The notes beneath the pieces are model-generated. The model had not been told where the DNA came from and made no database searches. It saw only the letters and a list, made by a program, of their open reading frames with translations. A stretch of DNA of 64,000 bases from Octopus sinensis (taxonomy: Eukaryota): the NCBI RefSeq assembly GCF_006345805.1, contig NC_043003.1, positions 93,496,001 to 93,560,000 on the forward strand, written 5' to 3'. The position numbers and the translations under genes were made by a program. The stretch's first letter is position 1. Every line of letters begins with the position of its first letter. This document shows, piece after piece, positions 819-52,981 of this stretch.

Positions 819-1312
819 TGGTGGCTGCTCCCTCGTTATCGAGTATGGCCATTGCACGAAGCTTTATCAATGTTATCGTGCAATGTCTGTGCAAGAAGAT
901 TTTTTTAAAGTGAGGAAAGGCTGTGCACTGAGTCAATCCCACTCACTAAGCAACATCAGCCATAGTCCGAAAAGAAGAACAAGTCAACATCATCGGTAAC
1001 CACTGAGCCGCAGGTTTTATGTCGGAGTTATCCCACTTACCTGAGTTACCTTCTCCTAGAAGGATGCTAGGAGTTCTTCACTCCCAATGGTTTAACCGCG
1101 CGATCGGATATTCAGTCCGCGCATGATACAGCCTTAAGCCTTAAGAAAAAAAAATACACATTTATTGGATGGGCGTTGTTTTTCATCCCGCAGAGTGTCC
1201 AATAAATACTCTCCTCACCAAGCAAGGTTGCCGGTTTAGTCGCCGACGACCCGACCATGCAACAGGTTGTACTGGGTTACATGTTACCAGTAGCACTCGA
1301 AAGTGACCTGAC
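819..1312 (-). mobile_element. Non-coding, non-autonomous RTE-like retroelement, copy 1
   Basis: Near-identical to 52395-52942. It has 3' stem-loops (TTGCACGA..TCGTGCAA; CTCG-ATAA-CGAG), a microsatellite tail, and GGAGAAGGTAACTC resembling RTE 5' UTRs. The RTE link is inferred. Confidence 0.7.
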
Positions 1313-1537
1313 ATAACATAACATACATACATACATACATACATACATACATGCATACATGCATACATACATACATACATACATACATACATACATACAT
1401 ACATACATACATACATACATACATACGTAAGAATGTGTATAACTACGGACAACTGCTACGAAAAATTCAGCTTCTGTATCCAAATTATAAACTCACATTT
1501 ATATCAATAATTTTTGGTGTACTCAGTTTTTGTTTAG

Positions 1538-12481: not shown

Positions 12482-12535
12482 AATAATAATAATAATAATA
12501 TAATAATAATAATATAATAATAATAATAATAATAA

Positions 12536-13070
12536 TGGAATAACAACAGAAAAAAGATGGTATAGGCACACACCAGAAAAGGTCACAGAAAACGAAAAAG
12601 CAACCATACTTTGGGATATACCGATACACTCAGATAGAGAAATTAAGGCCAACAGACCAGATATAGTTGTCAGAGATCATGAAGAAAAAAAATGCTTTCT
12701 AATTGATGTATCAATACCGGCAGATGACAACGTGTCTCTAAAAGAAATGGAGAAACTTTCAAAATACAAAGACCTAGAAATAGAGGTAACCAGAATGTGG
12801 AATCTAAAAACAGAAACAATTCCTATCATAGTAGGTGCATTAGGCATGATAAAAAAATATTCAGACAAATACATAACAAAAACACCAGGACTTACAAACA
12901 CATATAACATACAGAAAATTGCACTACTAGGCACTGCACACATCCTACGCAGAACACTTTCCATACAATAACCATCAGATCATCACAACAAATCACAGCA
13001 CATACCCAAGGCACACAGAGCTGCGCTCGGTAGTGAAGTAAAATCACGCTATAAAAATAAAGCTATTGAA
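12536..13070 (+). mobile_element. R4/Dong-clade non-LTR retrotransposon 3' end (restriction-like endonuclease and 3' UTR) inserted in (AAT)n
   Basis: WYRHTPEKVTENEKATILWD...ANRPDIVV...LIDVSIP...EKLSKYKDL...PIIVGALG...ALLGTAHILRRTL*. (AAT)n on both sides matches the known TAA-repeat targeting of Dong. Confidence 0.92.
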
Positions 13071-17788: not shown

Positions 17789-18261
17789 CATACATGCATA
17801 TATATATGGATGGATGTATTATGCATGTATGTATATATTTGTTGTGTGTGTGTGTGTGTGTATGTGTGTGTGTGTAAGCACGTAGTCTTTGTTGTAATGA
17901 AACACCTCTATGAAAGCTGTGCAGTTAAAAATGGATGGCTGGTATAAAAAAATAACTTGGTTTCTTGAATTAGAAAAATTAATAATCTTGCATTTTCCTT
18001 TTTTTTTGTATTTTGTGAGTATATGTGTGCACGCGCATGCGCGCTCGTGTGCATTATGATGAAATGAAACGATAGCGAGACGACAGCGAAATGTCATTTT
18101 AATTGAAACAAGTTATACTTTATGTCAGTTTGTAACATATTTGGCTGCTTGATCTTGTTTGCCATGGAAGTAACATAAATTTCCATTTATAAACTTCTCT
18201 TTCGAAAATTTTCAAATAAATATTCAAATTTCTCTTTGCTTTTTCTAATGAGTTTATTTTA

Positions 18262-18735
18262 CAGATATGCCATAATATACATCTGGAAGATCCTAGAAGG
18301 ACTTGTTCCAAACTTTGGCATCGAGAGTTACACAAATGCCAGAACTGGGCGCCACTGCGTGGTGCCAAGGACTCCAAATTTACCATCAAGATGTAGGACA
18401 AGATACTGTGATAGCCTGGGTTTCAGAGGCCCACAGCTCTTCAATATCCTCCCGAAGAACCTGAGAGACCTGCATGGGGTGGATGTAGATGTCTTTAAAA
18501 TAAAACTGGATCTCTTCCTGTCAGGTGTTCCAGATGAACCAACTTCACGGCAGGAGGTGCAGATGAGGGCAGCTGCATCGAACTCTCTCATCCACCAAAT
18601 GGCAATTGCTAAAAAGCATTCGTGAAGTAAAATCATGTAGCAACACCAAATGGCGGTGCCCCAGCATGGCCACAGCTCGTGAGCTGAAACTAGATAAAAT
18701 AGAATAAAAAAATAAAATAAAAATAAAATAAATAA
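18262..18735 (+). mobile_element. CR1-group LINE 3' end
   Basis: RYAIIYIWKILEGLVPN...FRGPQLFNILP..LRD...FKIKLDLFLSGVPDEP...SNSL*, then a 3' UTR stem-loop and (ATAAA)n tail. Confidence 0.88.
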
Positions 18736-20246: not shown

Positions 20247-21433
20247 CAGGGGTTCGACAAACTAATGGAAATGCCTTAAAATTTCAAACAAATTTATTTT
20301 AATATAGAGTAATTTGGCAATAATTACAGCTTGAATTCTACGAGGTATGGTCTCGTACAAAGTTTGGATTGTTTCCAAAGGAATTTTTGTCCATTCTTCA
20401 GCTAAAACAGTCTCCAGTTATTGTAGTGATGATGGTGGAGGATATTGACTCCTTACTAGTTTTTCTAAAATGCACCACAAATGTTCAATGATATTGAGAA
20501 CTGGGGGCTGTGATTGTCAGATAAAATGTTCAACTTCACTAGAATGTTCCTTGTACCATTAACAACTTTAGCTGTGTGAATTGGTCCATTATTATCCTGA
20601 AAGATTACGTTTCCCGCCGGAAACAGTTCCGCAACCTTAGGATGAATTTGATCAGACAAAATGCTTATATGGTTCCAAGATATAGCCACCCTACCCCCAT
20701 ATCATCACAGATCCTCCACCATGTTTAACAGTTGGAAGAAGGCAGTCTGGGTCAACGTATACTCGGCTGGTGGTCGGAAATAAGGTAAAGGATGACTCGT
20801 CCGAGAAAATAACATTCTTCCACTGCTCTAGGGGCCAATTCTGTAGGTTTTTACTCCACTGTAAACGCTTTGCAACGTTTGTTTTTAAAAGTAGTGTTTT
20901 TCTGATTGCAGCCCTCCCGTGAAATCCGGCTTTGTGCAGCTCCAGGTGAACATTTTTTTGTGGAATCTGGGTTCCCGAGGTGGTCATTAAGCTCTGCAGT
21001 AATTTTGGGAGCTGTACTTTTGTGATCCTTTCTAACAATTCGCGTAAGAGTCCGACGGTACCTATCTGAAAGTTTTGGTTTACTTCCGGTGTTTTGTTTC
21101 GACGAGGAGGTTTTTCCCTATTTCTCAAAGGCTGTCATTACTTTTGAGACAGTACTTCTTGATACATCAAACATTTCAGCTGTTTTCGTTACGCTAGTAC
21201 CTGCCATACAAGCACCAACGATTTGAACTCTTTGAAAGTCCGATAGATCTGTCATTTTAATGAATTTTAATTACCTTTTTCTTGGGAAAACATATTAGCA
21301 AAAATTTAGCAAAACATATTAAGCAATACTAATAATAAATTGAAAAGCATAAAAATAATCAGGTTTTTGACGGTTTTATACATATTTCAAAATTATGATG
21401 CTATGATGCTAAATGTTTCCATTATTTTGTCCA

Positions 21434-52396: not shown

Positions 52397-52939
52397 GTGG
52401 CTGCCCGCTCGTTATCGAGTATGGCCATTGCACGAAGCTTAATTAATGTTGTTATCGTGCAATGACTGTGCAAGAAGATTTTTTTAAAGGGAGGAAAGGC
52501 TGTGCACCGAGTCAATCTCACTCACTAAGCAACAGCAGCCATAATCCGAGAAGAACAAGTCAACATCATCAGTAACCACTGAGCCGCAGGTTTTATGTCG
52601 GAGTTATCCCACTTACCTGAGTTACCTTCTCCTAGAAGGATGCCCTAACAAAGGCTAGGAGTCCTTCACTCCCAATGGTTTAACCGCGCGATCGGGTATT
52701 CAGTCCGATTATTTCTGTCCTCACGCATGATCCAGCCTTAAGACATTTATTGGATGGCCGTTGACTCTCAAGAGTTCCTCCGCCCTTTGACAGGTTTTGT
52801 TTTTCATCCCTCAGGGTGTCCAATAAACACCCTCCTCACCAAGCAAGCTTGGTGGAGTTGCCGGTTTAGTCGCCGACGACCCGACCATGCAACAGGTTGT
52901 ACTGGATTACATGTTACCAGTAGCACTCGAAAGTGACCT

Positions 52940-52942
<3 letters not shown>
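52395..52942 (-). mobile_element. Non-coding, non-autonomous RTE-like retroelement, copy 2 (more complete)
   Basis: Colinear with 819-1312 and shares both termini. Flanked by (TG)n and (TA)n. Confidence 0.7.

Positions 52943-52981
<39 letters not shown>

Follow-up and report, generated by a model that had tools for sequence, protein, structure and literature searches.

An xrRNA-like fold at the 5' end of RTE retrotransposons of Octopus sinensis, a candidate roadblock for host exonucleases

The 5' end of a non-autonomous RTE element present in two copies in the window (the whole stretch of 64,000 nt analyzed here, from contig NC_043003.1 of Octopus sinensis) carries a fold which, judged from its letters, matches the subclass-1a xrRNAs of flaviviruses, a known non-catalytic class overlooked in the preliminary description of this DNA. 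The xrRNA-like core lies on the minus strand, as do all the coordinates of the element given below, at 52886..52942 in copy 2 and at 1256..1312 in copy 1. The fact that many copies of the element start 4 nt before the knot, at the predicted stall point of the nuclease, makes it likely that the start is set by the knot and not by a self-cutting ribozyme. Host Xrn nucleases probably trim read-through transcripts up to this knot, which would thus set and protect the 5' end of the element.

The three-way junction proposed earlier was recovered in the minimum-free-energy fold of both copies and consists of P1 (52940-36/52897-93), P2 (52935-24) and P3 (52922-17/52905-00, with loop L3 at 52916-06); the folding z-scores of the 86-mer are weak (-1.4 and -0.8 in the two copies). 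A single C (C52923) makes up J2/3, and C-A at 52899-98 makes up J3/1. The predicted tertiary contacts are the PK1 pair between G52942 and C52899, and a triple formed by U52941 with A52921-U52901. The 7-bp loop pseudoknot that had been noticed by eye, PK2 (52913-07 with 52892-86), is indeed present, with one U.G wobble. The path from A52907 to U52892 counts 16 nt, which we take to correspond to the ring of 15-16 nt of subclass 1a, the ring itself being predicted.

What defines subclass-1a xrRNAs is a junction of the stems P1-P3 with a conserved C separating P2 from P3, together with a U-A-U triple, a PK1 of 1-2 bp at the 5' G and a PK2 of 2-7 bp (PMC8374639, PMC8571300, PMC7527734, PMC12081666). 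Every sequence-level feature of this subclass named in the available text of PMC8374639, PMC8571300 and PMC12081666 has a counterpart in the window core. The junction with its 5-bp P1 is paired at 100% in P1, 95% in P2 and 98.5% in P3 in 22 aligned sequences, with double changes in each stem, and the J2/3 C is the majority letter in 39 of the 41 copies where it was free to vary. The letters of the triple are present (T in 88 of 90 unselected copies of the O. sinensis genome), the triple itself being predicted; those of PK1 are also present (G in 83/90) and their invariance gives no covariation, so that this pair is likewise predicted. The 7 bp of PK2 fall within the range of 2-7 bp.

The likeness to the flavivirus elements (RF01415, RF03547; PMC8374639, PMC8571300, PMC12081666) includes the 5' G-U, the variable P2, the single C between P2 and P3, the 5-bp P1 with identical letters at 4/5 pairs, the A-U as second P3 pair, the junction C, the L3 pseudoknot of 2-7 bp, and, as a putative counterpart of the viral RNA end 4 nt upstream of PK1, the edge of the genomic copies at this distance. 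Unlike the viral elements, which occur in 3' UTRs, the present fold precedes the coding region of a genomic retrotransposon, at the 5' end of the element; the last pair of P1 and the first pair of P3 are mostly U-A, an H-type pseudoknot stands in place of P4, the scores are below the Rfam cut-offs, and resistance is here a prediction. In the xrRNAs of mosquito-borne flaviviruses the junction is closed by C-G pairs alone (PMC13161572), a consensus from which the window core departs, since two of its three junction-closing pairs are U-A; in the AT-rich metagenome motifs described below, among the matches listed, U-A was found as the last P1 pair in 31/37 and as the first P3 pair in 37/37. The candidate is thus predicted to work like a subclass-1a xrRNA but outside the Rfam families, whose thresholds it misses and from which it differs at two junction pairs.

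A descriptor composed of the subclass-1a features with free stem letters matched only the two copies in 128 kb, and gave 3 matches in 33.9 Mb and 1 in 32.2 Mb of shuffled sequences, or 0 when the pseudoknot was set at 4 bp or more; since it was composed after the sequence had been seen, these figures are an upper bound on the surprise. At the gathering level, Rfam gave no hits over the window. At E <= 10, when microsatellite-driven miRNA matches were set aside, the best match was RF01415 (Flavivirus_SLIV) at 52876-52947 (23.8 bits, E 0.1, for a cut-off of 54.5), which covers the whole junction, and RF03547 (Flavi_xrRNA) had no match in the window. None of the xrRNA families of Rfam matched in 15 other loci, and RF01415 gave 0 matches in the O. 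sinensis genome among the 64 scored out of ~88,671 candidates, a sample too small to be informative. A C-G variant of the pattern gave 35 matches in this genome (control 8), one of which is a member of the family.

Based on sequence comparison, the window element is a bipartite internal-deletion derivative of a young RTE LINE, which is a known kind of element, and the fold therefore sits at a true 5' end. Copy 2 (52400..52945), delimited by its sequence and by blastn to the full-length LINE loci L064, L066 and L076, comprises the LINE 5' UTR (52945-52445) and the 43 nt with which the LINE ends (52442-52400), followed by an ACCA/(CA)n tail. Copy 1 (823..1316) starts with TTAT-GU after (TATG)n and has internal deletions within the third structured domain; the flanks of both copies are (TA)n or (TATG)n. 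In the 546-nt element, positions 1-501 and 504-546 align at 87-98% with the 5' and the 3' end of an APE+RT LINE, so that it consists of the initial 501 nt and the final 43 nt of the LINE, without the ORF. The earlier assignment to a non-autonomous RTE derivative is therefore upheld, as is the orientation, the LINE ORF running the same way as the element. Both head copies reported on the minus strand (52857..52942 and 1227-1312) were confirmed in the sequence, as was their difference at 1 position in 86. The remainder does carry more substitutions (19/381), as had been stated, but the excess of conservation in the head is not significant (Fisher P=0.14).

A 31-nt core sequence gave 1,113 exact matches in the 2.72-Gb O. 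sinensis genome (control 0). Among 20 LINE loci picked in this genome for their long RTE frames, 17 terminate with the last 43 nt of the element, and the 3 that reach the 5' end (L064, L066 and L076) all begin with its first 501 nt. This young LINE is ~4.2 kb long and encodes an endonuclease, an RT and C2H2 fingers. L064:231-310 and L076:251-330, which belong to different contigs, have an identical 80-nt upstream flank and an identical change at the triple U, and probably derive from one ancestral insertion. The core is also present, with an altered P2, in an older subfamily. In a separate older RTE family the head differs in P2, P3 and PK2; the descriptor matched in 5 of the 9 heads tested, and an endonuclease frame is located ~300-700 nt downstream in sense in 8/19 loci (L424-L442). 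The fold occupies the 5' end of both these RTE LINE families and of the bipartite derivative. In Logan contigs, which show neither RNA ends nor strand, DNA runs under five organism labels contained the element, as did one RNA library; in one of these organisms (E) the possible PK2 register is displaced by two majority changes, which do not form a clean compensatory pair.

The bipartite non-autonomous RTE LINEs RTE-N2_Lch and Bov-A (PMC5786205), which are mobilized in trans, have the same architecture (here, the 5' UTR and the last 43 nt); no architectural difference was found from the published account as available, and the new point is the structure of the head. RTE-2_OV of Octopus vulgaris (PMC9115989) is, by its description, like L062/L064 (an RTE LINE with a ~600-nt 5' UTR, endonuclease, RT, C2H2 finger and microsatellite tail); the available text of that paper gives no 5' structure and contains 0 occurrences of 'ribozyme'.

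Scanning of metagenome contigs with a degenerate pattern yielded at least 121 stretches, and 120 loci were analyzed. Among the matches listed, the descriptor fitted 49 of these 120 loci, including 36 with a GC content below 0.5. The fact that exons of eukaryotic genes (mL44, UCH, fn3) neighbor metagenome loci suggests that the AT-rich ones are host DNA, likely of animal origin. Among the 36 AT-rich loci listed, an endonuclease/RT ORF was found downstream in sense in five (L213, L236, L256, L261 and L272) and upstream of the fold in none. The five LINE proteins are 25-56% identical to that of O. sinensis and 2/5 are near full length; the RTE sub-lineage of L261 was judged from blastp. Many other AT-rich loci are copies of a ~230-nt SINE-like family, or end too early. 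In L222, L248, L268, L279 and L282 the fold is located inside a longer shared repeat and not at a LINE start. At the start of the elements of L229, L292, L305, L323, L237 and L288, the 5 nt that open the head are repeated in additional head-to-tail copies, which possibly arose from jumps of the reverse transcriptase at the 5' end. The 13 GC-rich passes, among the matches listed, include 2 virus-like ones and 4 confirmed as antisense to bacterial oxidoreductase genes. The latter (L212, L242, L259 and L270, antisense to pyridine-nucleotide oxidoreductase genes) are likely to be coding-sequence coincidences, that is to say false positives of the descriptor.

The search pattern did not constrain PK2, two Y/R pairs or the greater part of P2 and P3. 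At the free P1 pair, the 62 hits from loci with GC below 0.5 among the matches listed have U-A in 51 cases, C-G in 7 and an unpaired CA in 4 (58/62 paired), and the 68 GC-rich hits, which are largely due to chance, show a Watson-Crick pair in 35. P3 is extended by at least three unconstrained pairs in 44/62 AT-rich versus 17/68 GC-rich hits, again among the matches listed. The PK2 score over 12 of the families listed is 11.1, as compared with 7.9+/-0.6 for swapped partners (0/5000) and 8.0+/-0.7 in a shuffled control (1/2000); a 13th family without the 3' strand was dropped, and 3 of the 12 have a weak PK2. In the 22 aligned non-viral sequences, 12/22 pairs change on both sides (0/500 shuffles), and pairing amounts to 90% for the true alignment versus 27-45% for slid controls; double changes occur in 6/6 pairs of PK2, though its columns are just 67% paired. 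Since these 22 sequences were drawn from descriptor passes, the pairing of P1-P3 is partly circular, and the invariant core letters, largely fixed by the search pattern, carry no weight as evidence of covariation. Covariation, which had been put forward as a check of the fold, is thus found for the stems and the pseudoknot across distant elements; among the young O. sinensis copies none was detected, the changes being scattered and CpG-biased.

The head region of the O. sinensis LINE (element 21-195) is 73-78% identical to the heads of L213 and L261, while the proteins are just 25-29% identical; the L256 protein is 39% identical, yet this locus has the core alone in common with the O. sinensis head. 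This mismatch between head and protein identity suggests that the 5' module seems to have been swapped between RTE lineages. A short 5' module common to unrelated LINEs and short elements is likewise known in the ~70-bp domain of LP-SINE, Nimb-17_LMi, I-3_DR and RTE-9_CPB (PMC4758252); the sequence of this domain, as given in supplementary Fig. S2 of that paper, differs from the window head, and a promoter is proposed there.

At class-1 xrRNAs the main stop of Xrn1 lies 4 nt upstream of PK1 (PMC12081666). In copy 1, the 4 nt which precede the PK1 G and are common to the family, UUAU (1313..1316), are the predicted Xrn halt site (PMC12081666), and in copy 2 the leader (52943-52946) merges with the (TA)n flank. 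Such microsatellite flanks blur the edge of the element. Among 90 O. sinensis copies picked regardless of flank, 22 have a TT step breaking the microsatellite register at -4/-3 from the G and 9 have it at -5/-4, as against 0-3 copies for each of 23 positions further out. Among 56 copies from a set enriched for non-repeat flanks, positions -1 to -4 are T50, A41, T42 and T34, position -5 is mixed (T20, A17, G13, C6), and the complete TTAT leader is present in 24. A usable TSD was found in just 8 of the 76 copies with a 3' end, with spacers of 0, 1, 3, 4, 4, 5, 7 and 12 nt; the cleanest (L350, 11 nt) adjoins TTAT. In the SINE-like family nothing is in common upstream of the G among 23 copies, and TSDs were found in 4/15 copies (null rate 2%), with spacers of 4, 4, 0 and 11 nt, the two 4-nt spacers (TTGT and GGTA) differing mutually and from TTAT. 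In the older subfamily the search for TSDs gave nothing reliable. Variable leaders, on these small counts, are what would be expected from the trimming of read-through transcripts from many source copies.

In the mechanism proposed here, a copy of the element would be transcribed by read-through within a host RNA, and entry at a 5'-monophosphate would be provided by decapping, by a debranched intron or by cleavage downstream of a poly(A) site. Xrn1 or Xrn2 would then degrade the RNA up to the knot, and the protected RNA would be translated and then reverse-transcribed from its 3' side. xrRNAs are passable from the 3' side, as is established for viral copying. The knot would therefore do the job of the HDV-like and twister ribozymes of other RTEs by a non-catalytic route, and the idea of a 5'-processing role voiced in the preliminary description was, in our judgment, right, its enzymatic steps being conjectural. 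As with the self-cleaving ribozymes located at the 5' ends of non-LTR elements (twister in Perere-3, PMC8501958; HDV-like in RTE, R2 and Ingi, PMC5786205), the position is the extreme 5' end of an RTE LINE, and the element would be freed from its co-transcript; unlike those cases, no catalytic core was found here, and a host exonuclease would leave a 5'-monophosphate and not a 5'-OH. If true, this would constitute a new route of retrotransposon 5'-end formation and would explain the sharp 5' ends of promoter-less copies.

It is unlikely, in our opinion, that an internal RNA polymerase II promoter starts at the UUAU leader and that the fold serves as a stabilizer, a protein-binding or a translation element without making the 5' end: although promoters of this kind yield sharp LINE 5' ends, and although two more conserved pseudoknots downstream mean that the head may serve translation, U is not a typical first base for Pol II. 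Transcription by Pol II is assumed for bipartite LINEs (PMC5786205), and a sharp edge is compatible with either model, but the edge coincides with the published halt distance, and the TTGT and GGTA spacers of the SINE-like family vary as if the leader were inherited from flanking DNA and not a fixed start.

A similar pattern applied to a viral collection retrieves flavivirus 3' UTRs, and 18 of the 20 flavivirus loci retrieved have Rfam flavivirus elements above cut-off. A model (R1) built solely from the 22 non-viral sequences matches 7 and misses 6 of the 13 places called SLIV/xrRNA by Rfam in the flavivirus loci. Outside the pattern picks it gave five 3'-UTR matches, two of them Rfam-called (L159:4658, E 6.5e-5; L167:4339, E 3.3e-4) and three further ones, and it had no match in the upstream 4.3 kb of these loci. 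Most of the flavivirus matches score 25-37 bits, bacterial false positives 18-21 bits, and the core of copy 1 scores 73 bits with R1, a model in which the window copy is included. The natural stem letters are dispensable in a designed xrRNA (PMC13161572), so that the P1 letters common to the retroelement and flavivirus sequences favor common ancestry over convergence, whatever the direction of transfer.

The same fold was also observed in small RNA-virus-like contigs, with U-A as the first P3 pair as in the retroelements. In a noda-like genome (L166:4078) it follows the coat ORF at a distance of 44 nt, in L206:3872, L199 and L203 it comes just after RdRP-like ORFs (with weak model scores for L206 and L203), and in L169/L216/L269 two tandem copies separate a coat-like ORF from a zinc-finger ORF. 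In L205:4501, a 9.9-kb contig of the viral collection encoding a helicase polyprotein, the fold occurs ~400 nt after the ORF and has both U-A junction pairs, as in the retroelements. A literature search for xrRNA in nodaviruses listed one unrelated review.

We lean, with slightly better than even confidence, towards the view that animal genomes harbor a lineage of subclass-1a xrRNAs which RTE LINEs and SINE-like elements carry as an exchangeable 5' module, that its ancestry is shared with the xrRNAs of flaviviruses and of small noda-like viruses, and that trimming by host exonucleases provides a third route to a 5' end, depending neither on a promoter nor on a ribozyme. In the available text of a 2021 review, xrRNAs are characterized in viruses only and cellular xrRNAs are named as an open question (PMC8374639), and they are still described as viral in the accessible part of a 2025 paper (PMC12397905). 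Our search of the openly accessible literature for xrRNAs in retrotransposons, transposons, retroelements or eukaryotic genomes gave no report of a natural one in a retrotransposon; of the papers listed, the two closest mention an xrRNA in a reference or for a plant virus. If this view holds, xrRNAs with a native role would be known for the first time from cellular genomes; they would bear on the origin of the flavivirus xrRNA and would provide natural sequence diversity for RNA-stabilizing tools. The candidates, which come from at least a dozen sequence families, are short and directly testable, and their halt base is predicted.

There is little chance that the likeness to xrRNAs is a relic or a coincidence, the fold being a structured UTR, perhaps captured from a virus, which is kept for another purpose and is no longer resistant. 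The sub-threshold Rfam score, the U-A junction pairs, the existence of descriptor false positives and the scattered, CpG-biased changes of the young copies would all fit such a reading, but the unpaired G and U, the J2/3 C and the J3/1 C-A are kept while the letters of P2, P3 and PK2 turn over between LINEs that are 25-43% identical in protein, and although this invariance is partly imposed by the search pattern, PK2 and the 4-nt leader are not.

Behind the core, the letters previously read as a nested GUCGG/GUCG stem form an H-type pseudoknot adjoining PK2 (52860..52885), with S1 (GUCG 52885-82/CGAC 52872-69), S2 (GUCGG 52877-73/CCGGC 52864-60) and a UAAA loop. Across 10 homologues the nested stem found no support (78.9% paired, no double change), and in the pseudoknot 9/9 pairs are 100% paired, 3 of them with double changes. 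The next segment (52834..52856), where an echo of twister had been seen, is a plain variable hairpin, the stem of which varies freely in homologues; it is not twister, and the AACUCC involved is a minority variant, the family majority being C at 52856. The third conserved domain (52746..52832) has a GGGUG/CACCC hairpin, and a strand ~60 nt downstream is available for pairing with its loop (9 bp in O. sinensis, other letters in homologues). Parsing of 5 sequences by a script recovered this hairpin-plus-pseudoknot, with 5-9 bp of differing letters, in 4 and mis-parsed the remaining one, and RNAalifold on 5 sequences proposes a long-range alternative for the downstream domain. Two further conserved pseudoknots with covarying letters are thus located behind the core in the window (52746-52885) and in L213, L261, L278 and L328, and they are candidates for cap-independent translation or for a second roadblock. 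The third domain ends in a G-G-C-C-A junction, which we take to be reminiscent of HDV J4/2 and which we counted in favor of a ribozyme.

That the fold is an undescribed self-cleaving ribozyme cutting 4 nt upstream of the G is very improbable, since, despite the use of HDV-like or twister ribozymes by other RTEs (PMC5786205, PMC8501958), no Rfam ribozyme family was found at E <= 10 in the window or at E <= 1 in 15 homologous loci, the letters kept are those that xrRNAs need, and the sequence of the would-be cut site is not conserved; the undescribed self-cleaving RNA and the twister kinship suggested earlier are accordingly not supported. Several known ribozymes were rejected, all of them without an Rfam match: twister, the L4 motif and P4 of which are absent (blocks from PMC8501958), HDV-like ribozymes, for which a loose descriptor gave 0 matches in the LINE 5' UTR, and pistol and hammerhead, the core motifs of which are absent there, the descriptors of all four kinds having been used without a positive control.

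Other mobile elements were noticed in the window. Positions 1-690 on the minus strand, directly beside the tail of copy 1, are a 5'-truncated fragment of an older RTE family, with a protein 52-56% identical to that of the young LINE. Three open frames presumably belong to further elements: 12513-12968 on the plus strand resembles, as far as we can judge, the C-terminus of a restriction-like-endonuclease LINE, 18179-18622 on the plus strand the end of a CR1/L2-type LINE, and 20694-21134 on the minus strand a fragment of a Tc1/mariner transposase.
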